From Haliotis cracherodii (lineage: Eukaryota), in contig NW_027266308.1 in the NCBI RefSeq assembly GCF_022045235.1, positions 66,712,001-66,776,000 of the forward strand: a DNA stretch of 64,000 nt, in the 5' to 3' direction. Positions 1-60,456 of this stretch are shown piece after piece. The first letter of the stretch is position 1, and every line of letters starts with the position of its first letter. The position numbers and the translations under genes were made by a program. Below the pieces are notes generated by a model. It was not told the origin of the DNA. It saw nothing but the letters and a program-made list of their open reading frames with translations, and searched no databases.

Positions 1-2
1 AA

Positions 3-194
3 CAGGGTAACACCAGACGCCACCGGCCTACAACAACAACAACAACGATGACTACTAAGCCAAAAGTAAAGGCTCATGAAAATGTCATGAAAGCATATCA
101 AGCTGATGCTCTCAGACGATTGGTGCACATGCGGACCCAAAGAAAGTCCAAGAAGTCAGATCAACAGTTGCAACTCCCTCCTGCCACTGCCTGA
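3..194 (+). CDS. 3' end (or small ORF from ATG 48) of an unidentified Polinton gene
   Basis: Frame open from the window start to TGA at 192-194. The stop overlaps a GATAAAA element like other gene junctions in the element. No recognisable motif. Confidence 0.35.
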   Translation, partial: QGNTRRHRPTTTTTTMTTKPKVKAHENVMKAYQADALRRLVHMRTQRKSKKSDQQLQLPPATA

Positions 195-254
195 TAAAAG
201 AGAGAAGCTGCAGATCAGGTGACTCATTCAGACTAACACCTCCATGCAAGAAAG

Positions 255-583
255 ATGTCTCAGTGCCTCAGGAAACAGAAACACGCTCTGTGTCATTTGT
301 GTGCTGCCGCTCCAGCGATGCGCAAAGCCATTCTCAAACATGCTCCTACCGATCTCATCCGTGCCCTTTGTGAATGTGTGGTGAACTTGTATGCAGGCAA
401 TATTCCCATGACCACGACGCAACGTCAAAACTTGCAACGACACGGTAAAGTCTTGAATACGCTCATGAAAAAACAAGTACCTCTAAGCAAGAAACGTAAA
501 CTTCTTCAACATGGAGGAGGAAATTAGGAGGACTCATACCTCTTATTGGTTCTGCCCTAGCCTCGTTGTTTGGAGGAATGTAA
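255..583 (+). pseudogene. Conserved small Polinton virion protein with C-terminal amphipathic peptide; frameshift near 522-524
   Basis: RKAILKHA..DLIRALCECVVN...GNIP...KKRKLLQHGG matches a conserved Polinton small protein. The expected tail LGGLIPLIGSALASLFGGM* is present in the -1 frame (524-583). Confidence 0.7.
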
Positions 584-632
584 TAAATGGTCTGACACCA
601 GGAAGGTTGGGATCAGTGTGTGGTGTGTCACC

Positions 633-1587
633 ATGAAGTACGCACGCAAGATGGTGTTGGTGTCTGAAGACACATGGCAAAGTCTACAAGCCACCAAACA
701 ACGTCATCGTCAGACACTTCATACCCCTCTCTTGGAAAAGAAACGTCTCCAAAATTTGGAAGAGATGGACGCGTTGATGCAGAGGTCACAGCAGCCTTTT
801 CACATGCGGGAACAAGAATACAACCAACTGTTGCAACACATGCTAGAGTTGCAGCGCCAACAGCACAACAACAACAACCACAACAGCAACAACAACACCA
901 TCAAACCACTACAACCCAAAGTGACACCACCACTACCACCGTCATCACCATCAACAATGGACACCACAGGTAGACCTGCCCCTCCTCAACAAGTGATAGA
1001 CGAAGTGGTCATGAGTGTTCCTAAAGCCATGTCAAGTAAAGCCATGAATTTGATGACAAGGATTCAAAACAATCCCGACTTGAGTTGGACTCCAGAGGGA
1101 ACCCTGACCGTGGAAGGGAAACCTGTCCCTGGCACACACATGGTGGACTTGATCAACGATTTAGTGTGTCACCGGAAAACCAAAGAGGGACCTGCAGGTT
1201 GGACCATTTTGAGTCACCAACAGTCATGTCCCTCATGAAATAATTGGAAATCCTCAACGATGGCAATGGATGCAGAAGCAACAGCAGGAGCAGCAACACC
1301 ATCCTCATGCCACACCAGAAACACCCATAACCCAGTTCTCCCTCCCCACGTTCTCCCCGCAAAGTCACAAAGAGAGAAGAAGAAGAAGAAGGAGGCGGCA
1401 GCTGGATCCACAAGCGGAAGAAGATGAGATCCCACCCCCACCTCCTTCGTGGCAACTGGATCCACCAGTGGAGGAAGAAAAAGATGTGATGTCAACCCCA
1501 TGGTTGATGACTCCACCTCCATCTGATACCAAACAGGACAGAGTCATCAACAGGCGAGGTTCATGGATACCCTTTAGCACCACCTAA
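633..1587 (+). pseudogene. Conserved Polinton protein of unknown function, split by a frameshift near 1220
   Basis: MKYARKMVLV start and LSWTPEGTL.V.GKPVPGTHMVDLINDL...PAGW motif. The conserved continuation SHVPHEIIGNPQRW is in another frame and runs into ORF 1270-1587. Confidence 0.7.
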
Positions 1588-1660
1588 GAAAAACAAATAA
1601 ATCTCTCCCCTTCTCTATAAAAAGGCCATTCATGTAGGAAGTGGCATCAGTCTGAGAGAA

Positions 1661-2935
1661 ATGAAGCGACAGGCCAAGACGCGACAGAGCATTCTTCCCT
1701 CTGCTGCTGCTGCAGGGAAACAAAACAAAGGATTTCCTACTTCCCTTTGGACGGCCTGGTTGGAAAAAACCTACTTTCATCCTGAACATCCTGCAAGTTT
1801 TGGAGGCTGGCGACCTTTGTGGAAAGCAGCACGCATCCACGCTCAAGATGCAAGAACCAGTAAAAGCAAGAAGAAAACCAAGCCATCGCAAAGTCAAATC
1901 AAGCGTTGGTTGCAAACCAAAAGTACCTACACCTTGCACAAACCAGCCAGACGCTCCTTTCCCAGAGACCACTATCACGTGGGAGGGGTCGATGAACTGT
2001 GGCAAGCAGACTTGAGTGACATGATTGCCTTTCAAGACGACAACGAAGGATTCAAATATCTGCTGTGCGTGATCGATGTGTTTTCAAAGATGGCATGGGT
2101 GCAACCCCTGAAGGCCAAGAGCAGTTCTGCTTTGACAGAAGGTTTTCAAACCTTGTTGATGCAACAAGCCAAAGATCGACTCCCTGCTCAATTGCAAACA
2201 GACAAAGGCAGAGAATTTGTCAACCGTCCTTTCCAGGCTCTCATGACGAAGCATGGCATTCATTTCTACACCAGTCAAAATCCTGAAACGAAAGCAGCCG
2301 TGGTGGAACGGTTTCAAAGGACTCTGAAAAATAAAATGTGGCGATACTTTACACAGCATGGGACCAGACACTATTTGAAAGTCTTACCCCAGTTGATCAA
2401 GTCTTACAACCGTCGTGTGCATCGGACCATTGGCCAGCGACCTGTGGACGTCCTCCCAGGAGATCCCCCGTCAGAAATTCGGGTGTTAGACTACATGGAG
2501 GAAAAACAACAACAACAACAACGGCTTCAGCGCAAAAAGAAAATAACAGCTCAAAGACTGTCGTCCCCCAAGACAAGATCCCCCTCTCTTTTACTGCCGG
2601 GCACCCGTGTACGTCTGAACAAAACCAAAGGCACCTTTGAGAAAGGTTATCTCCCCAACTGGACCACCGAACTGTTTACGGTGGACCGGTTGGTGACAGG
2701 GAGAACACCACCTGTGTATCGGATCAAAGATGATCATGGTGAAGTCCTCCAAGGAACTTTTTACCCTGAAGAAATACAACCCATCTTGAAAACAGACGAT
2801 GTGTATGCCGTGGATCGCGTGCTAAAAAGACGTCCAGGACCGAAACAGGGTCAAGAAGAGGTCTTGGTGAAATGGACTGGTTACCCTGCCAGTTTTAATT
2901 CGTGGATCCCTGCAGATCATTTACAGATAAAATAA
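1661..2935 (+). CDS. Retroviral-type (rve) DDE integrase with C-terminal chromodomain
   Basis: WQADLSDM (D), LQTDKGREF (D), AVVERFQRTLK (E); FEKGYLPNWT motif; C-terminal YAVDRVLKRR...VLVKWTGYPASFNSWIP chromodomain. Intact 424 aa. Confidence 0.95.
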   Translation: MKRQAKTRQSILPSAAAAGKQNKGFPTSLWTAWLEKTYFHPEHPASFGGWRPLWKAARIHAQDARTSKSKKKTKPSQSQIKRWLQTKSTYTLHKPARRSFPRDHYHVGGVDELWQADLSDMIAFQDDNEGFKYLLCVIDVFSKMAWVQPLKAKSSSALTEGFQTLLMQQAKDRLPAQLQTDKGREFVNRPFQALMTKHGIHFYTSQNPETKAAVVERFQRTLKNKMWRYFTQHGTRHYLKVLPQLIKSYNRRVHRTIGQRPVDVLPGDPPSEIRVLDYMEEKQQQQQRLQRKKKITAQRLSSPKTRSPSLLLPGTRVRLNKTKGTFEKGYLPNWTTELFTVDRLVTGRTPPVYRIKDDHGEVLQGTFYPEEIQPILKTDDVYAVDRVLKRRPGPKQGQEEVLVKWTGYPASFNSWIPADHLQIK

Positions 2936-2980
2936 GGAGCATGCTGTCTCTCAGACTCATTCAGAGGGTGGACACACGCG

Positions 2981-3376
2981 ATGACAGAACCGCAACCACC
3001 ACCACCACCACCGTCATCACCTCTGCAGAGAAGCCTCTCAGCATCCGTGGGTACTGATGAACCACCCCTTGCTGCTGCACCTCGTCATCACCAGCGCCGA
3101 CACTCACCTTGGTGTTGTTTTGGCATGACGTTACCCCGCAGTGAAGTCGTGTTTTTTGCTCAGATCATTGTGATATATGGCGTGATCATCATGAGCATGG
3201 TACAGTTGGCCTTGGATCACGGAGAGAAACAGTTGTGGACAGCCCTGCTCTCCAGTTGTTTGGGATACATACTTCCACCACCCACCTTGGCCGCCTCACC
3301 AGGCATACCCACGACGACCCCGTCCACCAGAAGACTTCAACTTGATACCTCATCCACCCAGAGTTTTCTACCCTAA
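2981..3376 (+). CDS. Small predicted membrane protein of the Polinton
   Basis: Hydrophobic segments VVFFAQIIVIYGVIIMSMVQLAL and LWTALLSSCLGYILPPP. Position between integrase and minor capsid gene; preceded by TATA/Inr-like elements. Confidence 0.7.
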   Translation: MTEPQPPPPPPSSPLQRSLSASVGTDEPPLAAAPRHHQRRHSPWCCFGMTLPRSEVVFFAQIIVIYGVIIMSMVQLALDHGEKQLWTALLSSCLGYILPPPTLAASPGIPTTTPSTRRLQLDTSSTQSFLP

Positions 3377-3387
3377 CTCACGTCATC

Positions 3388-4434
3388 ATGGCTGCCACCT
3401 TTTTTTCGAAACAAGACTTTTACATGACCCTGCCCAGTGATGCCTCCATGGACATCTATCCAAACAACACCGTCAATGCGTATGAAATCAAGTTGCCTTA
3501 TCCTCTGCATCTGGACCGTCAACAGTGGGAGGTGGGCGTCAGCGAAGTTCACTTTCCGATGACATGGTACAACGTCGCCCCACCCTTTGACTGGTTTGCG
3601 CTGAACCTCAAACTGAAAAAAGACACCCTTGTGTATGAAAGCGCAGGGAGCGCTATACCACAGCCACAGTATGGTGTCGTCCATTATGAAAGCAAGAAGA
3701 TTCCTATCGACAAAGGGGTCTATTCATCTGAAGATTTGGTGAAAACCCTCAACCGTTTGATTCAGGAACATATTACGGATGTCTTGAAAGAACAGCCCTC
3801 AGACAGCGTCCAAAGTGATGGAAGACGGTTTGTCATTGATGTCAAGTATCCCGCAGATAGTCTTCGATTTGACATGCTTGAAGATGGAAAGGTGCGATTC
3901 CAAGCCCCTCAAGAAGTAGCAATCAATCATCCTCTCATGGGAAATACTGGTGGACCACTCTATTCCACGGAAGTGATCATGCCAAGTCCACTCTCGAGAA
4001 TGCTCGGATTTGTTCAACTACCGCTCCTCAGTGAGGAGGACTATAAAACCTACACAGAGACGGCCGTTCCCTTGACTGCCTTGGCCCATTGGCAAGTGGG
4101 GGCTACTCCCATGACCGGTGGCTATGTGGAAATCACAGGTGACACAAAAGCACATCATCTGTCAGGATTCGATACTGTGTACATTTACACCAACCTGGTC
4201 GAAGATCAAATTGTGGGCAATACGATGGCTCCCTTGCTGATCTACGTGCCTGTGTCAAAGAAGATGATGCAAGACAGTGTGGTGATTAAAAGCCCTCAGC
4301 ACATTCACTACCTTGGGTTGCGTCATGGTTCCTTTGACGGTATTAAACTCTATATCATGGACGACACAGGGCGACCCGTGCCATTTCAAATGGGGAAAGC
4401 CATCGTGACACTTCACTTCAGACGCCGCTACTAA
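3388..4434 (+). CDS. Minor capsid protein (penton, single jelly-roll)
   Basis: N-terminal FYMTLPSDASMDIYPNNT...LP..L....WEVGVSEVHFP and C-terminal VYIYTNLVEDQIVGNTMAPLL...DDTGRPVPF..GK..VTLHFRR motifs typical of Polinton minor capsid proteins. Confidence 0.85.
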   Translation: MAATFFSKQDFYMTLPSDASMDIYPNNTVNAYEIKLPYPLHLDRQQWEVGVSEVHFPMTWYNVAPPFDWFALNLKLKKDTLVYESAGSAIPQPQYGVVHYESKKIPIDKGVYSSEDLVKTLNRLIQEHITDVLKEQPSDSVQSDGRRFVIDVKYPADSLRFDMLEDGKVRFQAPQEVAINHPLMGNTGGPLYSTEVIMPSPLSRMLGFVQLPLLSEEDYKTYTETAVPLTALAHWQVGATPMTGGYVEITGDTKAHHLSGFDTVYIYTNLVEDQIVGNTMAPLLIYVPVSKKMMQDSVVIKSPQHIHYLGLRHGSFDGIKLYIMDDTGRPVPFQMGKAIVTLHFRRRY

Positions 4435-4447
4435 CGCAGAAAACAAC

Positions 4448-4813
4448 ATGTTGGGACACGCAATGGCACACCAGATGAATCGAGGACAGTTTGGCCAGCG
4501 TGGGAGTGGTATCAAAGTATACAAAGGACGTTATCAGCAACGTGGCAGTGGTCTTGGAGGTATCTTGAAGATGGCGTTGCCTTTCCTTAAATCTGCCGGA
4601 ACATCGGTGCTCAAGATGGGTAAAAAGATCCTGCCTGGGTTGGTGAGTGATGTGGTTGGAGGCAAACGCAAATGGTCAGAGAGTTTGAAACATCGCGGCA
4701 CAGCAGCCCTGATGGATGTCTTGGAGGAACGTGAGGAGCCGAGACCCCCTAAAAGCCGTAAAGTCGTCCCAACCACCACCACCACCACCCACCACAAACA
4801 GCGTAAAAGATAA
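4448..4813 (+). CDS. Basic core-like/internal virion protein (putative protease substrate)
   Basis: Two QRGSG motifs followed by LGGILKMALPFLKSAG amphipathic segment; Lys/Arg-rich; sits between the two capsid genes. Confidence 0.75.
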   Translation: MLGHAMAHQMNRGQFGQRGSGIKVYKGRYQQRGSGLGGILKMALPFLKSAGTSVLKMGKKILPGLVSDVVGGKRKWSESLKHRGTAALMDVLEEREEPRPPKSRKVVPTTTTTTHHKQRKR

Positions 4814-4903
4814 AGAAAAACGGTTTAAAGGTCAGTCCTCATCAGACTTTCAACCTGACCAGACGTCCTTCAAGGCAGAGAAAAGGGTGAAACATCCATC
4901 ATC

Positions 4904-6232
4904 ATGATGCGCCGAGATGCTTGCGAATGTTCAAAGGCCCAGTTGGATCTCTTTACTGTACCCCCTGTGTCCACCTCTGTGCAAGAGGGTCAGTGGATTC
5001 GCTATAGTCCCTTGGCACCACCCTCTGTAGCAGGACCACTCCAGTTTAACATTTCCAATCCCGTGAACGCTTACATTGATTTGAAACAGTGCTACCTGAG
5101 AGTATGTCTACGCGTGACGAAAGATGATGGCACGGATACCGTTCTAGCGGATAACCCCGTATCGACAGTCAACAATGTGATGCATTCCCTGTTTCGCGAA
5201 GTGCGGCTGCAAGTAGGACACAATCAGTTGGAGATCACACCCTCCATGGGCACTTACCCTTACAGAGCCTACTTGGAAACCCTTCTGAGTTATGGTACAG
5301 GAGCCAAAACATCTCACCTTCGATGTCCTGGATGGTTCACCGACGATGCTGGTAAAATGGATGTCTTCAATCCTGATGCAGATGCGAACACAAGAAACAC
5401 AGGTGTCAGAACGCGACGCGATCTTATCGTACCCACCAAAGAAGTGGAACTTACAGGCCGTCTACACTGTGACCTGTTTCTTCAAGACCGTTATCTGCTG
5501 GATGGTGTCCCTATGAAACTGGAATTGTTACGAAGTCCCGATGAGTTCTTCTTCATGTGTGCTGCTGATGGTGCCTACAAACTAGCGCTGACCAAAGCCG
5601 AATTCTATGTGCGTCAGCTCAACATCGATCCTGCTGTCCGAGAAACACACGTGTCCAGTCTGAACGCTGGGGTGACTGCCAAGTATCCCCTTTCACGTGT
5701 GCATGTGACTGCCCATGACATCCCGAGAGGCGGTAGGGACTTTCACAAGGATCACCTCATCGGTGGCCAATTACCAAAACGCGTGGTCCTGGGACTGGTG
5801 GACAATAGTGCCTACGTAGGAAGCAAAGAGAAGAATCCGTACAACTTCAAACACAATCATGTCACCATGATGAAGCTCAAAGTCAACGGCCAGGAAGTCC
5901 ATGGCACGGAAATAAAAAGCGACTTCAGCAACAACAGCGCCAATTTGAAACAAGTCTACATGAATCTGTTCCGAAATACGGGGCAGCTATGGCGACCTGA
6001 GACCTGCGAACTGACTCCCAAGGCCTTCACTCAAGGTTACACCTTGTGGGTGGTGGATCTCACCCCAGACCTTGGCGCTGATGAAGGCATCAACTACCCT
6101 CGACACACTGGCAAGCTGGCTTTGGAAATCCAGTTTGGACAAGCTCTCGAGGACCCAGCCACCCTCATCTGCTATGAGGAATACGAAAATGTTCTGGAAA
6201 TAGATCGTTTCCGGAATGCGATGATGGTATAA
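4904..6232 (+). CDS. Major capsid protein (double jelly-roll, Polinton PY/hexon-like)
   Basis: CECSKAQLDLFTVPP start, YPYRAYLETLLSYG, GRLHCDLFLQDRYL, GQLPKRVVLGLVDN, KNPYNFKH motifs; 442 aa intact. Confidence 0.9.
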   Translation: MMRRDACECSKAQLDLFTVPPVSTSVQEGQWIRYSPLAPPSVAGPLQFNISNPVNAYIDLKQCYLRVCLRVTKDDGTDTVLADNPVSTVNNVMHSLFREVRLQVGHNQLEITPSMGTYPYRAYLETLLSYGTGAKTSHLRCPGWFTDDAGKMDVFNPDADANTRNTGVRTRRDLIVPTKEVELTGRLHCDLFLQDRYLLDGVPMKLELLRSPDEFFFMCAADGAYKLALTKAEFYVRQLNIDPAVRETHVSSLNAGVTAKYPLSRVHVTAHDIPRGGRDFHKDHLIGGQLPKRVVLGLVDNSAYVGSKEKNPYNFKHNHVTMMKLKVNGQEVHGTEIKSDFSNNSANLKQVYMNLFRNTGQLWRPETCELTPKAFTQGYTLWVVDLTPDLGADEGINYPRHTGKLALEIQFGQALEDPATLICYEEYENVLEIDRFRNAMMV

Positions 6233-6285
6233 AAAGAGCAGCGACAGACGGTCATGCCACACTTTTTCTCCTCCTACAAGGAACC

Positions 6286-6864
6286 ATGGATGAACCACTC
6301 CGGTTGAGCACCTTGGATTTAGAAGCCCTCGTGGCTGATGACGAACCACTTCATGCCATCTACCGGGGCACCCTGGCCAGAGATGACTTTGCCAGACTGG
6401 GATGGCAACAGGATGACCCCTTTTACCCCAAAGCCTACGTGATCAACACGGATTTAAGCGATCAACCTGGCACACACTGGGTGAGCATCTATCGTCCAGC
6501 TCCTGGATCCGTGGAAATGATGGATAGCTATAGACTGTATTCATTACCCCTGTTTAAAGAGACTTTGAATCGCATGGGTCAGATTCAACAACGATGGAAT
6601 ACACGCCCCTTACAACATGGATACAGCACGTTGTGTGGGGTGTACTGTCTCTACATGCTGACCTATCGCGTGCGTGGGTGGACTTTTAATCAAGTGTTAG
6701 ATACGTTGGACTGGAAGGACACCACCAAGAATGATGCCATGGTATTAGCATGGTTTCATACCAAAGTGTCTACCTCCGTTCCTGTGGATGAGATGCCAGC
6801 CTTTCGACTGAGTGCCCAGACGCGTACGCTACATCAAAAGAACCAACCTTTCTGCCCTTATTGA
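6286..6864 (+). CDS. Adenain-like cysteine protease (virion maturation protease)
   Basis: INTD...PGTHW (His), DSY (Asp), PLQ (oxyanion Gln), STLCGVYC (Cys) in the adenain order. Confidence 0.9.
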   Translation: MDEPLRLSTLDLEALVADDEPLHAIYRGTLARDDFARLGWQQDDPFYPKAYVINTDLSDQPGTHWVSIYRPAPGSVEMMDSYRLYSLPLFKETLNRMGQIQQRWNTRPLQHGYSTLCGVYCLYMLTYRVRGWTFNQVLDTLDWKDTTKNDAMVLAWFHTKVSTSVPVDEMPAFRLSAQTRTLHQKNQPFCPY

Positions 6865-6923
6865 CCTGACACTTGTTCACTGAACCTACGATCACCTGAC
6901 TGTCAACATTCCTGATTGAGGAG

Positions 6924-7052
6924 TGTACATACGTTCACTGCGTTTTAGGAATGTACATACGTTCACTATCAAAGTGGCAAAAGTTCTTCTTTTTTTCAAA
7001 CTGTACATACGTTCACATACGTTCACATACGTGTACATACGTTCATGTTCAC
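6924..7052 (+). repeat. Cluster of TGTACATACGTTCAC repeats downstream of the protease gene
   Basis: 15-mer at 6924, 6952 and 7002, a near-copy at 7032, plus partial ATACGTTCAC copies. Confidence 0.85.
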
Positions 7053-7462
7053 AAAAGTCACAGGGACGCCCCTAATCCTGTGACTTTTGTTTTGTTGTGT
7101 TGGTTCATGTGAGCGGGGGATTAAAAAAAGTTGAACCCATAGTCGTGTTGTGTGGTCTGTAGGATGAAGAAAAACAAAACAGGATCGCCATCTCTCCCGA
7201 AAGACAACTTTCCTCCTTTGCTTTGACGACCCTCCCACCCACACCATGAACCCGTCTCCTCCTCCCTCCCTCCCTCCCTCCCTCCCTTCACCACCACCAC
7301 CACCACCACCACCCTCCCTCCCTCCCTCCACCACCGCCATCCCCGTCTATGTTTAGAACCACAACAACCACCACCACCACAAACGATGTTTGACGCGCTT
7401 CTTTCCATGTCGATCCCGTTCACCTTTGACGGGCGCTTCTCCGGGTTTTCCCCTACTCCTCC

Positions 7463-7743
7463 CCGGAAACGGAGGCAACGCCCTCTTGGAGGCGTGCGCC
7501 ACCGGACACGGAAGTGACGCCCTCTTGGAGGCGCGCGCCTCCGGAAACGGAAGCGACGCCCTCTTGGAGGCGTGCGCCTCCGGAAACGGAAGCGACGCCC
7601 TCTTGGAGGCGCACGCCACCGGAAACGGAAGCGACGCCCTCTTGGAGGCGCACGCCACCGGAAACGGAAGCGACGCCATCTTGGAGGCACGCGCAGGTCA
7701 CGTGACCGGAAACGGATGTGCCGCCATCTTGGATGCGCACGCA
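7463..7743. repeat. 39-bp GC-rich tandem repeat in the Polinton terminal region
   Basis: CCGGAAACGGAAGCGACGCCCTCTTGGAGGCGCACGCCA-like units starting at 7463, 7502, 7541, 7580, 7619, and diverged units at 7658 and 7706. Confidence 0.95.
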
Positions 7744-8014
7744 AGTCCCATCATGCACTGCGCAGGTCACGTGACCGGAAGTGACGTCACAGAGGTCACG
7801 TGATCCTCTCGACCAATCAGAAGCCAGGAGCGGTTCCATACCGATGTGCTTAACTACTGGGGATCTATAGCCCATTTTTATATTGTCTTGTTGATTATAC
7901 ATGTATTGTTTTAACTGTTCTCAACTAGTTTTACAATTGAACCTGTGATATTCTAGTTATCTTACTGTCCATCGTTGACAGCTTTTTATTAAATCACAAT
8001 GTAATTATTATAAC

Positions 8015-35530: not shown

Positions 35531-37806
35531 CTGACATTATTGAAGGCTCTGTCCAAGTTTCGTAAAATTATTGTGCCCGTGTGTGACACATAATCCTATC
35601 ATAATGCATGTAACTATCATCGACCAGTGTTTTGAGCCAACTCAATGCTGAGGGTTTTTTAATATTAGCTAGCAATGTGCACAACTACCTGTGTCTAAAG
35701 TGAAGGAAGTAGAGGTGGCCTTGCTTTGGTTACTGGTGTCCTACAGCCCATGTTTTAAAACCATACACATGATATTGTTATGCTCAATTTTGCTTTGGTT
35801 TTTTTGCATAAAGGACTCAGTTGTGAATATATTAACCTGATCCCGTCGCTATATGGCTGGAATAATTCCGATACGACGTTAGATTTTAATTCACTCACAC
35901 TCTCGCCTTCCCATGGATTTAATCAAATAATCAGCCAAAATGGAAGGTTAAATTACACCAATTAACAGAGACTATGACACATAGAAGGGTCAAATATTTT
36001 CCGTGAATAATATTGGACGACTCTGAACATTTAATTGATATTGAGAATTTGAATGTCCAAACGACTGACTCGTCGGAAATGGCCACAGCTGGATATTGTA
36101 CAGGCGATGGAAAACAGATTATCTGAACTTCTTATGCAAATGAAAGTCGATATTCAATCAATAATTGCCTCTTTGAAACAAAACATCCCTGATGTGAAAA
36201 AGAAAGTGAAATTTGTAGAACAGAAGGTCGCTACACACAGGGAAGAGATAAAAAATAAATCCGTGGAGAGCTTTTTGTAACAGAAAGACAGTTTTCCACA
36301 ATGAGAATTTTGTTAGACTGCTCATATATTCCATGTGCATTAGTAAATCCACGTTTTATTAACGGACATTACTTATACTGAGTCCTCTTTCCATTTAGCC
36401 CGATATGTTGTACTCAATGCTTTCTCATGCTGTTTTAGTCGTACACGGGCATGCAGTAGGGTTACTGTGTGCAAACGCGTGTTATCTGTACCGACAACCA
36501 TGGCGGGGAGCATTATCAATCTGTGCATTCAAGTATGATTCATCGGAAACTATGGATTCTATGTTCAATGGAAAACATCTCATGGGCTTGAAACGGTAAG
36601 TTAATGTACACGCATAGTTCAGAACAAGTAACATGTTCATTGTCTCCTAATTTATTACGAATGCAAAGCATAAACAACACTAATTTCTCTTTTGGCTACT
36701 TCTCCACAGTTCCCAAATTCATCGCCCTCCCCATTTTGATTGAAAGGTCATAGCAACCATGGATACGTTTACAACATTTGATGGGAATAGATGACAGAAT
36801 AAGTATTGTGTCGGAAAACTGTAGATGTTTAGCCGAGTAAAGGAAACGTAAAGAAGTTCTCAATTGATAAGAAGATAAAGTGCTCTAATATATGTTTACC
36901 ATGTATACATAGTTCTGAAGACAAAGAAAACATGATGAATGGGGTTAAGAATGCACTGTAGCTCCTTACAAATCTAATACTAGCAGTGTAGAAATTCTAT
37001 TAATATTGTATAATTTAAAATACATAGAGTACATTAAGGTGAAATTTTATCATACGAGACATATGAGTAGAGGGGATACGATTCACACTCACTTATATTT
37101 ATGGTCCAAATTCATATAAACCTAATTGCTACAATGTATTATTAAAAAAATGTCAAATGTTTGTCCACAATATCAGTATCATTTGTTCATTGCAAACATT
37201 TCAATCAAATTTGGCTTTAACACAATTCCAAGTAATGCTTTACTGAATGTATAAGCTTTTTTACTAAAATTCATTCATTTCAAGCAAGATCTGTATTCCA
37301 TAAGGCAGATCTGGGGAATGCATTAGACTGCATGAGCTTGGTTTAAATTATGTAACTGAACACAATACAAGACTGGAAACGAATCAGCAAAGAGGGCATT
37401 GGAATTTGATAAAGATATTGGACCAGCATTGAAACATGCCTTTTGACTCTGAATCATTGAGGCTAACTTATAGGTACACAGACCACAGACTCTATGTCAT
37501 GGAACTCACGTGCATCGCTTTACCATGGCCGTTGCTGTGATGCGTTTGGTCGATTGGTTTTATTGTCATCTACTTTGTTTTTTTTATCATCAAAATTCAT
37601 TTTTCCGGACAAGGTAATGTTAAATTTTAGGAATTGACAATGACAGATATTTGAGTGACAACTTGCAATGTTACTTCGGGTGTTGTTTATTTGCGGTTCA
37701 GTATAGTTGAGTGCTATGCAAACTGAAATGCACATGCGTTCCCCTATTTCTTGCCCTATAAAAATCCAGATCATATAACATTCTTTCGTTATTGAATTAC
37801 TACAAT

Positions 37807-38651
37807 ATGCCAAGACTGACAAGAAATCAGCGACAACAAGACCTTGGACGATTGCAAGCTGGACAAACCACCCGGCAAGTAGCCAATGCATTTCAAGTCC
37901 ACATAAGGACCATATACAGGCTCAAGCAATGGTACCAGACCACCAACAGTTCAGATGACAAACCACGTAGTGGAAGACCAAGGGTCACCAGCCGACGTCA
38001 GGATCGTCAGATTGTGCGACAGCATCTTCAAGATCGCTTTGTTACTGCTGCGGAAACTGCTCGACAGACCAAGGGGACACAACAGCGACACATTTATGCG
38101 TACATCATGCGTCGACAATTGACGAGCAAACACCTCCACTGTCACAGGCCACACCAAAGACCCATTCTGACACCACGTCATCGCCAGGATCGTCTTCAGA
38201 GGGCAACACAGCACCAGCATTGGCGTGGCGCCACCAGACGAGAGCCGTTACTGTATCTCAACAGCAGATGGCAGAGAGAGAGAGAGAGTCTGGTGACGCC
38301 ATAGGGAACGTTATTTGGATGCTTGTGTTGTTGAGAGAGACTCGTGGGGTGGTCAGAGGATCATGGTGTGGGGTAGAATTGGTCTTGCACAGAGGGTCAG
38401 CCATGTGGTCTTCCAGTACATCGGTCCATGGAGAGGCAATGGTGTCACAGCAGCTCGATACACTGATCAAGTCTTGAGACCACATGCCATACCTCATTTG
38501 GCACATCGCCGCAACCATGAGTTTCAGCATGATAACGCCCGTGCCCATACTGCGAGAGCAACAAGAGACTTCCTCCAGCAGAATGGCATCAGAACCATGC
38601 AGTGGCCTGCCCTAGTCATGATTTAAATCCCATTGAGTACATGTGGGACAC
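37807..38651 (+). mobile_element. Tc1/mariner transposase remnant (also 41347-42191, 44885-45729)
   Basis: MPRLTRNQR...GRLQAG, DDKPRSGRPRVTS, GGQRIMVWG, FQHDNARAH; frameshifted and 3'-truncated. Confidence 0.88.
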
Positions 38652-38694
38652 TGTTTGGACAAATAAGGTTTCTTATATATCTATCCAAGGTGAC

Positions 38695-39615
38695 GTTTCT
38701 TTTGCGGTTCAGTATATATTTTGGACTTACCTTTCTTGGTTAAATCAGTAAGGGGTTCTGCAAGAGCTGAAAAATCTGGGATAAATCGGCGATAATACCC
38801 AGATAGACCAATCAAAGCTCGTACCTGTTTCTTTGCAGTCGGCCTCGAGAGTTCTAGGATTTTGTCTAATTTTTTCCTGTCTGGAGAAATCTCACCTTCA
38901 CCGACAGTGTGGCCTAAAAACTGCAGTGTATGGTACCCAATTACCGTAAATGACTTAAAACAGCTCAAAAGTTATCTATATGTTCAGACCATTCCTCTGT
39001 CCCCTCTTAAATATCGTCAATGTAGCTGTCCACATGAGCTCTTCATCCAAGCACCTTCCTCATTAACCTCGTGAACACTGCAGGGGCTTTCACAACCCCA
39101 GATGGCATTACAGTCCATTGATACAACCCATCTGGCGTAACAAAAGTTGTACATGCTTTACTTGCTTCTTCCATGGGAATCTGCCAATAAGCCTTGTTTA
39201 TGTCAATTTAAGAATATGTGTAACATTTGCTAAGACGAGTGAATAAACTTTCTGTCAAAGTTTTTGGCTCTGAGTGAAAAACTGTGATCTGGTTAATCCG
39301 ACGGAAGTCCACACAAAATCGATACTGATAAGTAGTCCTAGTCTCTTCATTTGGGATATCCTTTGTCCATGATTCTTTCAAAACCTGAACTCGACCTCTC
39401 ACCATCCTACCATACAGTAAATCAAATGTAGCAAATCCCAAACTTTCCTGTGGGACCTCACGATAAGCAAATAACAGGGCTGGTAAATAACGATCACAGT
39501 CTTGGGGTTGCTCTGCACTCAACCACTTCAGCATGGTTTTCAAGGTGTCATTAAAACTTTCAACTCGTCCATTGCACATTGGATGATATTAAGTTGTGGT
39601 AAGCTGTTTAAGTGA
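38695..39615 (-). mobile_element. Gypsy-group (Gmr1-like) pol remnant with integrase upstream of RT (also ~42235-43153, ~45773-46693)
   Basis: Minus-strand order: NGRVESFNDTLK...AYREVPQESLGF (INT), RFCVDFRRIN, KAYWQIP, YIDDI (RT), FLGHTV...GLSGYYRRFIPDF. Confidence 0.85.
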
Positions 39616-42600
39616 TAGTAATCTTCACCTCAATACATTGACATCTTTGGGCATTAATACTTAAATACACTTCAATACATGCATGTCAACAATGAATAAT
39701 CTCATATTATATACACAATCTGTACAAAGTCATTTTCCCAACGCCTCCTTCCACGTCAATGCACTATACACTGTACATTGTTTAGGAGCTTCACTCAGGT
39801 CTCATCCTGTCCATATTAGCATTCTCATATTCTTGGCCATCTGTCGCCGTGGGGTCAGGCTTCATATATTCCATGTGCATTAGCAAATCCACGTTTTATT
39901 AACGGACATTACTTATACTGAGTCCTCATTCCATTTAGCCCGATATGTTGTACTCAATGCTTTCTCATGCTGTTTTAGTCGTACACGGGCATGCAGTAGG
40001 GTTACTGTGTGCAAACGCGCGTTATCTGTACAGACAACCATGGCGGGAAGCATTATCAATCTGTGCATTCAAGTATGATTCATCGGAAACTATGGATTCT
40101 ATGTTCAATGGAAAACATCTCATGGGCTTGAAACGGTAAGTTAATGTACACGCATAGTTCAGAACAAGTAACATGTTCATTGTCTCCTAATTTATTACGA
40201 ATGCAAAGCATAAACAACACTAATTTCTCTTTTGGCTACTTCTCCACAGTTCCCAAATTCATCGCCCTCCCCATTTTGATTGAAAGGTCATAGCAACCAT
40301 GGATACGTTTACAACATTTGATGGGAATAGATGACAGAATAAGTATTGTGTCGGAAAACTGTAGATGCTTAGCCGAGTAAAGGAAACGTAAAGAAGTTCT
40401 CAATTGATAAGAAGATAAAGTGCTCTAATATATGTTTACCATGTATACATAGTTCTGAAGACAAAGAAAACATGATGAATGGGGTTAAGAATGCACTGTA
40501 GCTCCTTACAAATCTAATACTAGCAGTGTAGAAATTCTATTAATATTGTATAATTTAAAATACATAGAGTACATTAAGGTGAAATTTTATCATACGAGAC
40601 ATATGAGTAGAGGGGATACGATTCACACTCACTTATATTTATGGTCCAAATTCATATAAACCTAATTGCTACAATGTATTATTAAAAAAATGTCAAATGT
40701 TTGTCCACAATATCAGTATCATTTGTTCATTGCAAACATTTCAATCAAATTTGGCTTTAACACAATTCTAAGTAATGCTTTACTGAATGTATAAGCTTTT
40801 TTACTAAAATTCATTCATTTCAAGCAAGATCTGTATTCCATAAGGCAGATCTGGGGAATGCATTAGACTGCATGAGCTTGGTTTAAATTATGTAACTGAA
40901 CACAATACAAGACTGGAAACGAATCAGCAAAGAGGGCATTGGAATTTGATAAAGATATTGGACCAGCATTGAAACATGCCTTTTGACTCTGAATCATTGA
41001 GGCTAACTTATAGGTACACAGACCACAGACTCTATGTCATGGAACTCACGTGCATCGCTTTACCATGGCCGTTGCTGTGATGCGTTTGGTCGATTGGTTT
41101 TATTGTCATCTACTTTGTATTTTTTATCATCAAAATTCATTTTTCCGGACAAGGTAATGTTAAATTTTAGGAATTGACAATGACAGATATTTGAGTGACA
41201 ACTTGCAATGTTACTTCGGGTGTTGTTTATTTGCGGTTCAGTATAGTTGAGTGCTATGCAAACTGAAATGCACATGCGTTCCCCTATTTCTTGCCCTATA
41301 AAAATCCAGATCATATAACATTCTTTCGTTATTGAATTACTACAATATGCCAAGACTGACAAGAAATCAGCGACAACAAGACCTTGGACGATTGCAAGCT
41401 GGACAAACCACCCGGCAAGTAGCCAATGCATTTCAAGTCCACATAAGGACCATATACAGGCTCAAGCAATGGTACCAGACCACCAACAGTTCAGATGACA
41501 AACCACGTAGTGGAAGACCAAGGGTCACCAGCCGACGTCAGGATCGTCAGATTGTGCGACAGCATCTTCAAGATCGCTTTGTTACTGCTGCGGAAACTGC
41601 TCGACAGACCAAGGGGACACAACAGCGACACATTTATGCGTACATCATGCGTCGACAATTGACGAGCAAACACCTCCACTGTCACAGGCCACACCAAGGA
41701 CCCATTCTGACACCACGTCATCGCCAGGATCGTCTTCAGAGGGCAACACAGCACCAGCATTGGCGTGGCGCCACCAGACGAGAGCCGTTACTGTATCTCA
41801 ACAGCAGATGGCAGAGAGAGAGAGAGAGTCTGGTGACGCCATAGGGAACGTTATTTGGATGCTTGTGTTGTTGAGAGAGACTCGTGGGGTGGTCAGAGGA
41901 TCATGGTGTGGGGTAGAATTGGTCTTGCACAGAGGGTCAGCCATGTGGTCTTCCAGTACATCGGTCCATGGAGAGGCAATGGTGTCACAGCAGCTCGATA
42001 CATTGATCAAGTCTTGAGACCACATGCCATACCTCATTTGGCACATCGCCGCAACCATGAGTTTCAGCATGATAACGCCCGTGCCCATACTGCGAGAGCA
42101 ACAAGAGACTTCCTCCAGCAGAATGGCATCAGAACCATGCAGTGGCCTGCCCTAGTCATGATTTAAATCCCATTGAGTACATGTGGGACACTGTTTGGAC
42201 AAATAAGGTTTCTTATATCTATCCAAGGTGACGTTTCTTTTGCGGTTCAGTATATATTTTGGACTTACCTTTCTTGGTTAAATCAGTAAGGGGTACTGCA
42301 AGAGCTGAAAAATCTGGGATAAATCGGCGATAATACCCAGATAGACCAATCAAAGCTCGTACCTGTTTCTTTGCGGTCGGCCTCGACAGTTCTAGGATTT
42401 TGTCTAATTTTTTCCTGTCTGGAGAAATCTCACCTTCACCGACAGTGTGGCCTAAAAACTGCAGTGTATGGTACCCAATTACCGTAAATGACTTAAAACA
42501 GCTCAAAAGTTATCTATATGTTCAGACCATTCCTCTGTCCCCTCTTAAATATCGTCAATGTAGCTGTCCACATGAGCTCTTCATCCAAGCACCTTCCTCA

Positions 42601-45600
42601 TTAACCTCGTGAACACTGCAGGGGCTTTCACAACCCCAGATGGCATTACAGTCCATTGATACAACCCATCTGGCGTAACAAAAGTTGTACATGCTTTACT
42701 TGCTTCTTCCATGGGAATCTGCCAATAAGCCTTGTTTATGTCAATTTAAGAATATGTGTAACATTTGCTAAGACGAGTGAATAAACTTTCTGTCAAAGTT
42801 TTTGGCTCTGAGTGAAAAACTGTGATCTGGTTAATCCGACGGAAGTCCACACAAAATCGATACTGATAAGTAGTCCTAGTCTCTTCATTTGGGATATCCT
42901 TTGTCCATGATTCTTTCAAAACCTGAACTCGACCTCTCACCATCCTACCATACAGTAAATCAAATGTAGCAAATCCCAAACTTTCCTGTGGGACCTCACG
43001 ATAAGCAAATAACAGGGCTGGTAAATAACGATCACAGTCTTGGGGTTGCTCTGCACTCAACCACTTCAGCATGGTTTTCAAGGTGTCGTTAAAACTTTCA
43101 ACTCGTCCATTGCACATTGGATGATATTAAGTTGTGGTAAGCTGTTTAAGTGATAGTAATCTTCACCTCAATACATTGACATCTTTGGGCATTAATACTT
43201 AAATACACTTCAATACATGCATGTCAACAATGAATAATCTCATATTATATACACAATCTGTACAAAGTCATTTTCCCAACGCCTCCTTCCACGTCAATGC
43301 ACCATACACTGTACATTGTTTAGGAGCTTCACTCAGGTCTCATCCTGTCCATATTAGCATTCTCATATTCTTGGCCATCTGTCGCCGTGGGGTCAGGCTT
43401 CATATATTCCATGTGCATTAGCAAATCCACGTTTTATTAACGGACATTACTTATACTGAGTCCTCATTCCATTTAGCCCGATATGTTGTACTCAATGCTT
43501 TCTCATGCTGTTTTAGTCGTACACGGGCATGCAGTAGGGTTACTGTGTGCAAACGCGTGTTATCTGTACCGACAACCATGGCGGGGAGCATTATCAATCT
43601 GTGCATTCAAGTATGATTCATCGGAAACTATGGATTCTATGTTCAATGGAAAACATCTCATGGGCTTGAAACGGTAAGTTAATGTACACGCATAGTTCAG
43701 AACAAGTAACATGTTCATTGTCTCCTAATTTATTACGAATGCAAAGCATAAACAACACTAATTTCTCTTTTGGCTACTTCTCCACAGTTCCCAAATTCAT
43801 CGCCCTCCCCATTTTGATTGAAAGGTCATAGCAACCATGGATACGTTTACAACATTTGATGGGAATAGATGACAGAATAAGTATTGTGTCGGAAAACTGT
43901 AGATGCTTAGCCGAGTAAAGGAAACGTAAAGAAGTTCTCAATTGATAAGAAGATAAAGTGCTCTAATATATGTTTACCATGTATACATAGTTCTGAAGAC
44001 AAAGAAAACATGATGAATGGGGTTAAGAATGCACTGTAGCTCCTTACAAATCTAATACTAGCAGTGTAGAAATTCTATTAATATTGTATAATTTAAAATA
44101 CATAGAGTACATTAAGGTGAAATTTTATCATACGAGACATATGAGTAGAGGGGATACGATTCACACTCACTTATATTTATGGTCCAAATTCATATAAACC
44201 TAATTGCTACAATGTATTATTAAAAAAATGTCAAATGTTTGTCCACAATATCAGTATCATTTGTTCATTGCAAACATTTCAATCAAATTTGGCTTTAACA
44301 CAATTCCAAGTAATGCTTTACTGAATGTATAAGCTTTTTTACTAAAATTCATTCATTTCAAGCAAGATCTGTATTCCATAAGGCAGATCTGGGGAATGCA
44401 TTAGACTGCATGAGCTTGGTTTAAATTATGTAACTGAACACAATACAAGACTGGAAACGAATCAGCAAAGAGGGCATTGGAATTTGATAAAGATATTGGA
44501 CCAGCATTGAAACATGCCTTTTGACTCTGAATCATTGAGGCTAACTTATAGGTACACAGACCACAGACTCTATGTCATGGAACTCACGTGCATCGCTTTA
44601 CCATGGCCGTTGCTGTGATGCGTTTGGTCGATTGGTTTTATTGTCATCTACTTTGTTTTTTTTATCATCAAAATTCATTTTTCCGGACAAGGTAATGTTA
44701 AATTTTAGGAATTGACAATGACAGATATTTGAGTGACAACTTGCAATGTTACTTCGGGTGTTGTTTATTTGCGGTTCAGTATAGTTGAGTGCTATGCAAA
44801 CTGAAATGCACATGCGTTCCCCTATTTCTTGCCCTATAAAAATCCAGATCATATAACATTCTTTCGTTATTGAATTACTACAATATGCCAAGACTGACAA
44901 GAAATCAGCGACAACAAGACCTTGGACGATTGCAAGCTGGACAAACCACCCGGCAAGTAGCCAATGCATTTCAAGTCCACATAAGGACCATATACAGGCT
45001 CAAGCAATGGTACCAGACCACCAACAGTTCAGATGACAAACCACGTAGTGGAAGACCAAGGGTCACCAGCCGACGTCAGGATCGTCAGATTGTGCGACAG
45101 CATCTTCAAGATCGCTTTGTTACTGCTGCGGAAACTGCTCGACAGACCAAGGGGACACAACAGCGACACATTTATGCGTACATCATGCGTCGACAATTGA
45201 CGAGCAAACACCTCCACTGTCACAGGCCACACCAAGGACCCATTCTGACACCACGTCATCGCCAGGATCGTCTTCAGAGGGCAACACAGCACCAGCATTG
45301 GCGTGGCGCCACCAGACGAGAGCCGTTACTGTATCTCAACAGCAGATGGCAGAGAGAGAGAGAGAGTCTGGTGACGCCATAGGGAACGTTATTTGGATGC
45401 TTGTGTTGTTGAGAGAGACTCGTGGGGTGGTCAGAGGATCATGGTGTGGGGTAGAATTGGTCTTGCACAGAGGGTCAGCCATGTGGTCTTCCAGTACATC
45501 GGTCCATGGAGAGGCAATGGTGTCACAGCAGCTCGATACATCGATCAAGTCTTGAGACCACATGCCATACCTCATTTGGCACATCGCCGCAACCATGAGT

Positions 45601-46699
45601 TTCAGCATGATAACGCCCGTGCCCATACTGCGAGAACAACAAGAGACTTCCTCCAGCAGAATGGCATCAGAACCATGCAGTGGCCTGCCCTAGTCATGAT
45701 TTAAATCCCATTGAGTACATGTGGGACACTGTTTGGACAAATAAGGTTTCTTATATATCTATCCAAGGTGACGTTTCTTTTGCGGTTCAGTATATATTTT
45801 GGACTTACCTTTCTTGGTTAAATCAGTAAGGGGTACTGCAAGAGCTGAAAAATCTGGGATAAATCGGCGATAATACCCAGATAGACCAATCAAAGCTCGT
45901 ACCTGTTTCTTTGCGGTCGGCCTTGAGAGTTCTAGGATTTTGTCTAATTTTTTCCTGTCTGGAGAAATCTCACCTTCACCGACAGTGTGGCCTAAAAACT
46001 GCAGTGTATGGTACCCAATTACCATAAATGACTTAAAACAGCTCAAAAGTTATCTATATGTTCAGACCATTCCTCTGTCCCCTCTTAAATATCGTCAATG
46101 TAGCTGTCCACATGAGCTCTTCATCCAAGCACCTTCCTCATTAACCTCGTGAACACTGCAGGGGCTTTCACAACCCCAGATGGCATTACAGTCCATTGAT
46201 ACAACCCATCTGGCGTAACAAAAGTTGTACATGCTTTACTTGCTTCTTCCATGGGAATCTGCCAATAAGCCTTGTTTATGTCAATTTAAGAATATGTGTA
46301 ACATTTGCTAAGACGAGTGAATAAACTTTCTGTCAAAGTTTTTGGCTCTGAGTGAAAAACTGTGATCTGGTTAATCCGACGGAAGTCCACACAAAATCGA
46401 TACTGATAAGTAGTCCTAGTCTCTTCATTTGGGATATCCTTTGTCCATGATTCTTTCAAAACCTGAACTCGACCTCTCACCATCCTACCATACAGTAAAT
46501 CAAATGTAGCAAATCCCAAACTTTCCTGTGGGACCTCACGATAAGCAAATAACAGGGCTGGTAAATAACGATCACAGTCTTGGGGTTGCTCTGCACTCAA
46601 CCACTTCAGCATGGTTTTCAAGGTGTCATTAAAACTTTCAACTCGTCCATTGCACATTGGATGATATTAAGTTGTGGTAAGCTGTTTAAGTGATAGTAA

Positions 46700-47520
46700 T
46701 CTTCACCTCAATACATTGACATCTTTGGGCATTAATACTTAAATACACTTCAATACATGCATGTCAACAATGAATAATCTCATATTATATACACAATCTG
46801 TACAAAGTCATTTTCCCAACGCCTCCTTCCACGTCAATGCACTATACACTGTACATTGTTTAGGAGCTTCACTCAGGTCTCATCCTGTCCATATTAGCAT
46901 TCTCATATTCTTGGCCATCTGTCGCCCTGGGGTCAGGCTTCATACAACGAATGTCCCTGCCTCCTCATATTACATACAGGTGCCCCTCTGGGTCCCCGGA
47001 CACTATATAACAAACGTCCACTATGAAATGAGGGTGGCCAGACGAGAATGGATAGCGGATAATAGACCATGGGGAGGAAACTCTAGATTATACAAATCCT
47101 ATAAAAATGCTAAAAGGGAATTTAGACGTTTACACCGAAAATCAAAACCTAAACAGCGTAAAGAAATAAGTACAGAACTAGAAAAGACATGTGAAGCCGA
47201 TATAAATACATTCTATAAACATGTTCGTAAGTTGAGACGCAAGAGTCCAGTTATTGATAAATTAGTTTACAATGGACGTAGTGCTGTTTCTTCAGCTTAT
47301 ATATGTAAACTGTGGGGTGACTATTATTCGGACTTGGCAAAGCCTCACCAGTTTGATGATTTTGACGGAAACTTTAAACTCACCATTGTATCAAAACTTC
47401 ATTATATCATAACAAAATCGTCATATTCATGATCCACTAGATGATATCCTGTATACAGAAATCCAAGTCTCACAAAGTATCACAAATACACAACCTTAAA
47501 AAAACAAATCTCCAGGACCT
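46700..47520 (+). mobile_element. CR1/L2-like LINE ORF2 fragment (EN-RT linker)
   Basis: REWIADNRPW...YKSYKNAKREFRR, FYKHVRK, and LKKNKSPG at ~47495-47520; its 5' part forms the end of each triplicated unit. Confidence 0.6.
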
Positions 47521-52742: not shown

Positions 52743-53572
52743 ATGTCTGACAATAAACTTTAGGATGATCAACACAGAGACATTATATTTTATTCTTATT
52801 TTTGTTCAGACAAATTTGGATAATTATAATAATACAGATCATAGCATTCCAATTTGCATAGTATTTAGAAAGTGCGGCTTGCTTTAAGGAAGAAGCTCAA
52901 CAATGTTTGTCTGTGCATTTATCTCTGTCTGTCCAGCTTTTTTTCGGGACAGGTGGTGCTAGACCTGTGTCCAACATGTTCACAAAACCATGCTGGGTGT
53001 GTTTCTTTCATTAGCACTAGGTGATTAAAACAGTCAGTCCGAGGATGAGAAATGGGGTTGATTACTCCATACACTGTACTTTATACTTCTCTAAATGTTT
53101 TCCATTGGGTTTTAAGTATTGGTGAATCATTTTCAGTAGTCCGATGTTCGATAGGTAACAAGACGATCCATTGTGAACCTATGTCAAGAAATATATCTAC
53201 TATATATTCTCATGGGTCTGTTAAAAGATTATACTCTAATCGATTGTATGAAAGGGGTCAATTCAAATATACAATAGCATTCAAATGGTGTAAAAGTCAG
53301 TAATAGTTCCCATACAAAGAAATACGTTTGACTGATGGTTAGCAACATTTGTAACAGCATGCACGTTTTCCGTGTGAGACTGTCCCTTGATTTGGTACGC
53401 GTACTATAGAGCTCTGAACTGTGCTGTCAGACAAGAGTCGCACCCAACGATCACGTGTTTTAGCCGAACAAATGCATATTTGTGTGACAGCAACAGTCCG
53501 CGTTTAGGGGACGGTATGCATCACACGTGTATTGCAGACTTTGACGAAGCATATGTTTCTATCAATTTTAGA

Positions 53573-53891
53573 ATGACTCCATATTTGATGATAGTTGTCA
53601 TCATATCAACACTTGTGAAAACCTCAGCCTCTCTCTGTCTAGACCACTGTGGCTGGACTACAGGACAGTGGGGAGCATGCAGCCACTCTTGTGGCGGTGG
53701 ATTTCAAACGAGGGAAACATCACTTTGTTGTTTGTTGGGGGAGCAAGCTTATTACTGTCATAAGCGATGCAGTCATTTTGCTACCCCCCCGTCAAAGAGC
53801 AGAGGATGTAACAACATATGCTACAACGGTGGTACTTTTCATGGGCGGTGCAGGTGTAGAGAGGGATACAGAGGTAGATGCTGTCTGGAGG
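53573..53891 (+). CDS. First coding exon of a secreted protein: signal peptide + TSP1 + EGF-like domain
   Basis: MTPYLMIVVIISTLVKTSAS signal; WTTGQWGACSHSCGGGFQTR (TSP1); CYNGGTFHGRCRCREGYRGRCC (EGF); acceptor ttttag at 53571, phase-1 donor G|GTAAG at 53891/53892. Confidence 0.8.
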
Positions 53892-60154: not shown

Positions 60155-60456
60155 ATGACTCCATATTTGATGATAGTTGTCATCATATCAACACTTGTGA
60201 AAACCTCCACCTCTCTCTGTTACACACACTGTGGCTGGACTACTGGACGGTGGCGAGCATGCAGTGGGCATCAAACGAGGGACACATCACTTTGTTCTTT
60301 CTGGGGGGAGACTGGAGATCAGTGTCAACGCAGTTATTTTGTACCCCCCCCCCCACCCCCCACCCCCACCCCCACCCAACAAATGCTACAACGGTGGTAC
60401 TTTTAACGGCTGGTGCAGGTGTAGAAAGGGATTCAAGGGTAGATGCTGTCAGGAGG
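60155..60456 (+). pseudogene. Paralog of the TSP1+EGF exon, disrupted
   Basis: Same signal peptide. TSP1 loses the CSHSCGGG motif by deletion, and the EGF part is out of frame after a C-rich tract (~60344-60378). Donor G|GTAAG retained. Confidence 0.75.

Follow-up and report, generated by a model that had tools for sequence, protein, structure and literature searches.

In the genome of the abalone Haliotis cracherodii, a Polinton has probably been split into two mutually dependent segments, which are inserted separately and are named segment A and segment B here. Segment A holds an integrase, a packaging ATPase, predicted capsid proteins and a protease, segment B holds the polymerase and two inhibitor-of-apoptosis (IAP) genes, and no gene is common to both. 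Complementary, non-overlapping gene sets on separate molecules, one criterion for a segmented virus, are therefore what is found. The stretch of DNA analysed (the window) comprises 64,000 nucleotides (NCBI RefSeq assembly GCF_022045235.1, contig NW_027266308.1, positions 66,712,001 to 66,776,000 of the forward strand), and a first-pass annotation had placed a largely intact Polinton/adintovirus-like virus at its positions 1..7858. The four genes named there are indeed open, but two accessory open reading frames (ORFs) are broken and the protein-primed DNA polymerase B (pPolB) is absent. The finding is more unusual than a recent, intact adintovirus: the polymerase lies on another element, which has the same ends and was integrated separately.

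The sequence at 1..7858 (+) is the right three quarters of segment A, which measures 10,604 bp as a whole (G000:C45:66709255-66719858). Its left terminal inverted repeat (TIR) begins 2,746 bp before the window, in a stretch that also contains the left arm, the packaging ATPase and the start of a 320-aa ORF. Of the pPolB, ATPase and left TIR expected upstream by the first-pass annotation, the last two were found, and the lack of the first counts against its view of a complete virus: no pPolB is present between both ends of the 10,604-bp element, which means that segment A cannot replicate on its own. The right TIR occupies 7188..7858 (-), where the 318 bp of 7541-7858 repeat the left end perfectly and the imperfect part extends to 7188 (91%), giving an imperfect TIR of about 590-670 bp; a 39-bp tandem array lies within it (7463-7694), and the repeat is also present on segment B. 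The right terminus is exact at 7858, where ...ACTACT is followed by the 6-bp target-site duplication (TSD) GGGGAT (7859..7864, +), and an identical 6-mer precedes the left end. The clean terminus described earlier is thus real, and the perfect TIR, the exact TSD and sister copies of 97-99.8% identity agree with the recent insertion into an invertebrate host, here an abalone, that had been proposed. The GC content is 50% in the element and 40% in the rest of the window. A promoter-like motif, ATAAA...TCA(G/T)T, was detected 44-94 bases 5' of the start codon in 7/10 segment A ORFs (counted with no shuffle control) and not once on the opposite strand of the segment, and it also precedes three segment B genes.

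The virion genes of segment A are uninterrupted and co-oriented, and their Polinton identity, as first assigned, was upheld. The retroviral-type DDE integrase with a C-terminal chromodomain (1661..2935, +; 424 aa; Pfam rve E 8e-12, chromodomain E 9e-9) retains D117, D181 and E216, and the adenain-like (C5) maturation protease (6286..6864, +; 192 aa), placed among Peptidase_C5 clusters of the ESM Atlas with a score of 0.97, retains H64/D80/Q110/C117, so both catalytic sets are intact as had been stated. The double jelly-roll major capsid protein (MCP; 4904..6232, +; 442 aa) and the minor capsid protein (mCP, penton; 3388..4434, +; 348 aa) are identified by predicted fold. A sequence search of the PDB with the MCP gave 0 matches, and the Pfam search gave none for the mCP or the protease. 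The AlphaFold model of the MCP (114 sequences; pLDDT 92.5) has the Sputnik MCP as its best Foldseek match in the PDB (E 7.6e-17) and also matches the double jelly-roll capsids of PBCV-1 and iridovirus; that of the mCP (29 sequences; pLDDT 85.1) matches the mavirus penton best (E 2.1e-9) and adenovirus penton bases as well. Both capsid proteins were settled by these predicted folds, which bear out the jelly-rolls anticipated for the two frames. The packaging ATPase (C45:66710462-66711166, upstream of the window; 234 aa) matches Pox_A32 (E 2.8e-6). A DDE integrase, a double jelly-roll MCP with a penton, an A32-like ATPase and an adenain-like protease, all features by which Polintons are recognized, are accordingly present on segment A, and the pPolB that belongs to the same set is not.

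Segment B was reached through the ends. The TIR was used as a query against the genome and returned other inverted pairs; nine were fetched, two being A and seven B. Segment B carries a 1417-aa pPolB (Pfam E 1.3e-34), two BIR (IAP) genes (L021:2099-2611 and L021:9594-10049), a zinc-knuckle gene and small Cys-rich ORFs. No A-type gene was met in any of the 27 loci read, and an integrase or virion gene was found on segment B in 0/27. A TIR pair is present in 26/27 of these loci, an exact TSD in 25/27 and an open pPolB frame in 16/27. The sequence that A and B have in common is limited to the ends, the promoter-like repeat and a few short stretches. At residue 863 the polymerase carries EFLGCFWHG, which we take to be a VSR-like motif. 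As a separate observation, a BIR gene is retained behind the protease in some old A-like copies.

Copies were counted in the assembly of one individual, with the best 40 candidates scored of 66 for the MCP, of 174 for pPolB and of 63 for integrase DNA; 33 MCP loci (about 11-20 kb each) and 27 pPolB loci were read in detail. Among the MCP loci, 31/33 have no pPolB, and the two with pPolB are old relics; a TIR pair was found in 14/33 and an exact TSD in 11/33, and ATPase, integrase, mCP, MCP and protease are all open in 5/33. The nearest MCP-pPolB pair among the best 40 of each is 242 kb apart. Integrase matches of at least 95% identity number 16 among the best 40 of 63 candidates, and all 16 are A-type: the A left arm runs into the ATPase, and pPolB is missing. 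The best 40 of each candidate list in this assembly yielded no young one-piece copy. The A segments are 9.9-10.6 kb long (nine young copies; median 10.3 kb) and the B segments 10.6-12.0 kb (25 copies, one 8.4-kb deletion copy excluded; median 11.6 kb), compared with 12.3 kb for a compact one-piece relative. The TIR and TSD of the window element fall within the 100-1500 bp and 5-8 bp of Polintons (10.1101/2023.08.22.554363), but both segments are shorter than the usual 13-25 kb; because of its length and the missing pPolB, segment A is classed as Polinton-derived and not as a stand-alone Polinton. Two of the A copies (L037-L040, G000:C6:35.79-35.85 Mb), which are separated by 46 kb, have common flanks and a common TSD and are one insertion copied by host duplication.

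The same counts decide whether the window copy, and B likewise, could have arisen by an ordinary one-off deletion or through an error of assembly. Isolated internal deletions are indeed seen in the family (copies of 4.5, 8.3 and 8.4 kb), and one B copy (L012-L013, G000:C25:692635-704639) has no TSD and flanks that are inverted copies of each other, which reflects either a fold-back rearrangement or an assembly artefact. This reading, held to be highly improbable, is refuted by the recurrence of the junctions at independent sites with different TSDs: the A junction, from left arm to ATPase, is contiguous in 20/43 rows, and the B junction, from the end of pPolB to the next B gene, in 40/40 scored. 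The A junction is also bridged by a 706-bp contig (X12) of another organism (organism C), with 10 differences.

The ends link the two segments. Both A and B are bounded by TIRs starting with AGTAGT, each with its own 6-bp TSD, so that terminal sequences common to the segments, a further criterion for a segmented virus, are also found. The mean identity over the first 100 bases is 0.74 between A and B, 0.70 among A copies and 0.83 among B copies, and one A and one B copy are identical across the 125 bases used in the terminus tree; the ends of four other Polinton elements in the genome score 0.52-0.59 against A/B ends. In the terminus tree A and B termini are interleaved, and at least five A/B label changes are forced by starred branches. 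Bases at about 8-30 vary widely between A/B copies, yet they are identical at both ends of most young copies, which suggests that the ends are equalized in each round by panhandle-type repair. At the right end of one A copy, an additional ACT triplet precedes the TSD.

A third class of elements has the family ends as well. At 3/16 loci, elements of 3.7-7.4 kb with exact 6-bp TSDs show no match to any A/B protein (L174:1524-5186, L176:971-8375, L186:3601-9275); the class also includes L169-L173, and its other loci are long palindromes built from the left arm of A. The gene-less elements look like defective parasites of the A/B system. With their exact TSDs, they show that nothing beyond the ends is needed in cis and that the enzymes are supplied in trans.

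Selection was assessed on both halves with variants classed as shared (present in at least two copies) or private, in 15-16 A-type and 37 B-type copies; one of the two A copies with identical flanks was dropped from the counts. The dN/dS ratios for shared and private variants are 0.18 and 0.61 for the MCP (p 7e-6), 0.16 and 0.56 for the ATPase (p 0.002), 0.32 and 0.76 for the integrase (p 0.02), and 0.25 and 0.70 for pPolB (p 3e-20; 37 B-type copies). In frame, the C-terminal half of pPolB has a dN/dS of 0.17, whereas off-frame controls give 1.25-1.94. Purifying selection thus acts on the variants shared between copies in both halves of the system (MCP 0.18, pPolB C-half 0.17). It follows that selection has preserved the capsid and packaging genes in a polymerase-less lineage, and the polymerase in one that lacks integrase and capsid. 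That capsid and ATPase genes are under selection in an element with no polymerase of its own is a clean argument for their use.

These results bear on the view that A and B are separate non-autonomous lineages with no mutual need, each moved by an intact one-piece helper, be it a master copy that is polymorphic or missing from the assembly, an exogenous virus or a sister family. Non-autonomous derivatives with the same ends do exist, and only the best 40 candidates were scored per search. A related one-piece sister family is present in the genome, with open pPolB, ATPase, mCP, MCP and protease frames and two copies of at least 98%. Passengers, however, are expected to lose genes, while A and B keep full sets under purifying selection in copies differing by up to 10-20%, and the two gene sets are exactly complementary. 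The 16 young integrase loci include no young one-piece copy, the same terminal variants are common to A and B, and the sister family is rare (five matches of at least 88%), with ends unrelated to those of A/B past six bases (0.52). Helper-driven passengers are therefore considered unlikely, and two segments that depend on each other remain the preferred explanation.

One-piece copies of the A/B family survive as six relics. In two MCP loci the ATPase is immediately preceded by a pPolB of the same orientation; one of these loci has the family ends and an exact TSD. No relatives of these two polymerases above 86% identity were found among the scored matches. Of 19 older pPolB loci read, four adjoin A genes, 10 were classed as B-type and five were left unclassed; the four relics so added comprise two with a clean pPolB-ATPase junction, one without the ATPase and one rearranged. 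All six carry stops, and in 5/6 the pPolB lies in several frames. Identity to B is 73-82% for the relic pPolBs, and most of the relic virion genes show 80-92% identity to A. In a pPolB tree of 31 rows, nine of them from young B copies, the six relics and two unclassed copies form one clade (100/100), with end branches of 0.058-0.13 for the relics and 0-0.055 for B-type copies. In the MCP tree (33 rows, 2/6 relics, no outgroup), the two relics have branches of 0.045 and 0.059 and the A-type copies of 0-0.067; split and one-piece forms thus overlapped in time. The MCP and pPolB phylogenies that the first-pass annotation had proposed could thus be built and yielded a firm relic pPolB clade, but not a fixed root.

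With the root in that state, the two-part organization could be right and its history reversed or mixed, the relics being A+B fusions or the B polymerase coming from another lineage. The lower identity of the relic pPolBs to B, compared with that of the relic virion genes to A, fits such a history, as does the sister family, whose pPolB lies on the strand opposite to the ATPase, unlike in the relics, and which does not favour fission; exchange of pPolB between Polintons has been documented as well (10.1101/2023.08.22.554363). On the other side, the end branches of the relic pPolBs exceed those of all B-type copies, and every other Polinton element read in the abalone genome is one-piece. At least three other Polinton families there are in one piece, with elements of 16.5, 17.1, 21.6 and 28 kb (the last with an insertion); at a fifth locus the ends were not found (L149-L168: G000 C4:10.27 Mb, C67:50.2 Mb, C2:46.4 Mb, C6:4.9 Mb, C23:57.3 Mb). 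Several of these families have many open-frame MCP copies. A more distant element (L189, IMGVR_UViG_3300040792_000067) consists of one complete contig of 12,321 bp that has a TIR at either end and encodes a compact Polinton gene set in one piece; it is a candidate free linear genome. Its order is co-oriented as in the relics: an ORF with polymerase motifs, then ATPase, integrase, mCP, MCP and protease. The long ORF, which has no Pfam match at 0.01, is presumably the polymerase, as judged from its motifs. This gene order favours fission, and a reversed or mixed history appears less probable still than a one-piece helper.

If a one-piece Polinton was indeed divided into A and B, the cycle can be pictured as follows. 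Both segments would be excised or copied out as linear DNA. The pPolB of Polintons is primed by its own N-terminal terminal-protein domain. The pPolB of B would copy any molecule with family ends by protein priming (for the terminal-protein domain, see PMC11071308), and the integrase of A would insert any such molecule, A and B alike. The ATPase, capsid proteins and protease of A may package both segments, and the IAPs of B may delay host cell death. One segment per particle is the preferred guess because both segments are about as long as the compact one-piece relative. With A and B resident in every host cell, the co-infection cost of a divided genome would be lifted, which would explain the persistence of the split. 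A stronger version, in which particles with a double jelly-roll capsid do form, each carrying one segment, is put forward tentatively and seems rather doubtful: the family would then be a naturally multipartite animal double-stranded DNA (dsDNA) polintovirus, found in several abalone species, with ancestor, segments and parasites preserved as a dated series.

Several points weigh against the division into dependent segments. Complementation, free linear DNA and particles are inferred. The 26 MCP, 134 pPolB and 23 integrase candidates beyond those scored, and the single individual, leave room for a hidden one-piece helper, and the sister family, with its open pPolB and the same first six bases, could help in trans. 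The shared and private dN/dS ratios do not differ significantly for the mCP (0.23/0.49, p 0.057), the protease (0.31/0.60, p 0.36) and the 320-aa ORF (0.84/0.72); the B accessory genes gave no significant signal of selection, nor did the youngest copies on their own, with few variants (p 0.09-1). Private variants also lie below 1 (0.5-0.8), so this class is not purely neutral. The A/B labels in the terminus tree are somewhat clustered, 10 and 30 of 500 shuffles being as low. The oldest A-type MCP branch (0.067) is as long as those of the two relics in the MCP tree. The pPolB tree rooted with the sister family has its root among B copies, with weak support, and an AU test did not fix it (p 0.43).

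The family extends beyond this assembly. Sequence words of segment A are present in 17 runs of four organisms, none of them on record as RNA. In run X18, 442/448 of the reads on segment A are partial and coverage is thin. For organisms A, B and C, there are runs in which 29-30 of 30 bins contain B-like sequence of at least 90%; among the contigs listed, none from another organism bridges the B junction. The nearest named MCP is 99% identical and comes from H. cracherodii itself, with relatives in H. rufescens and H. asinina. In H. rufescens, full-length MCPs fall in the same 90% cluster and a pPolB is 91% identical; in H. asinina (P0003 cluster and P0156), 18 MCPs are about 74% identical, and the best pPolB reaches only 48% among the 7999 candidates scored. 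IMG/VR contributed two loci and metagenomes six, of which L189 and L190 were inspected, both being too distant for the layout to be examined in other species.

The remaining ORFs of segment A are small or accessory. The 3' end of the 320-aa ORF lies at 1..194 (+); its N-terminal half is rich in Pro/Ser/Gln, and its middle part is paralogous to a 109-aa ORF (BLASTP E 7e-8). A small conserved ORF at 255..527 (+) ends early here, at 90 aa, compared with 109 aa in other copies, and has homologues in one-piece Polinton families of the same genome; its position suggests a candidate PZ-type core gene, the label being inferred from PMC8097293. The accessory ORF at 633..1587 (+) is in two pieces (201 + 105 aa) here and a single frame of 316-331 aa in other copies. 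A 131-aa ORF with hydrophobic stretches (2981..3376, +) has a homologue in another Polinton family of the same genome, and a small basic ORF between mCP and MCP (4448..4813, +) is a candidate PW/core protein, labelled from its position. Beyond segment A, the window has only broken transposable-element (TE) frames; none exceeds 250 aa from stop to stop in 7900-64000, in keeping with the decay first noted for the other TEs. A 3.54-kb unit stands in three near-identical tandem copies at 37500-48000, with a broken Tc1-like transposase and an integrase fragment. Two similar frames at 53378-53926 and 59999-60406, the first with a thrombospondin type 1 domain, are probably exons of duplicated host genes.

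Polintons are described as one-piece elements of 13-25 kb in which pPolB and integrase occur together (10.1101/2023.08.22.554363; PMC5499653; PMC8097293). Taken together, A and B resemble Polintons/Mavericks (polintoviruses, animal adintoviruses) in their six core genes, AGTAGT ends, long TIRs and 6-bp TSDs; they differ in that pPolB and integrase reside on two separately inserted 10-12-kb elements. The VSR-like motif of the B polymerase is as described for mollusc pPolB2, a likeness by motif only (10.1101/2023.08.22.554363). As in non-autonomous Polinton derivatives or mini-Polintons, each segment lacks an essential enzyme and is served in trans; unlike them, for which an intact master is needed, no master was found here, and the gene sets of the two defective forms complement each other and are under selection. 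Surveys have required all genes within 20 kb or a pPolB linked to an integrase (10.1101/2023.08.22.554363), and under such criteria A and B would both be missed. No bipartite Polinton was found in the literature searched, which did not extend to Repbase/Dfam entries, subscription papers or supplements, and the available part of PMC6431247 makes no mention of a split Polinton; the supplements of 10.1101/2023.08.22.554363 include Haliotis rufescens pPolB2 elements, which may bear on the novelty of the split layout. Searches demanding linked pPolB and integrase thus have a blind spot, and 'defective' Polintons in other genomes may be halves. If the split is real, two separately integrating, complementary segments are a new genome architecture for the Polinton lineage.

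Members of the Bidnaviridae have a parvovirus-like capsid and no integrase, and segment A, with its double jelly-roll MCP and integrase, falls outside that family. Like the bidnaviruses (Bombyx mori bidensovirus) and the Drosophila Vesanto virus, the A/B system nevertheless combines a pPolB with segments and matching terminal repeats (PMC8502044; PMC8363768). Those viruses have single-stranded DNA and are described as parvovirus-like, whereas A/B has a double jelly-roll capsid, an integrase and an adenain protease and is endogenous; if the split is confirmed, it would stand parallel to the segmented bidnaviruses with their Polinton-related polymerase. Polydnaviruses are similar in having segmented dsDNA and proviral segments in an animal genome, but their particles are replication-deficient and wasp-domesticated (PMC2646287; PMC5094692), while A and B keep inserting at new sites. 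In the available text of a 2016 review, the multipartite animal viruses named are only a bidensovirus and an RNA virus (PMC5094692). Complementing defective genomes have been proposed as a route to multipartite viruses on the basis of an experiment with foot-and-mouth disease virus (cited in PMC5094692), in which, as here, two complementing defective molecules replace a one-piece ancestor. That case concerns an RNA virus in cell passage, whereas the abalone case concerns a naturally occurring element of dsDNA type whose copies form a dated series in the host genome. If true, it would document in nature how one piece became two, a question still open in virology.

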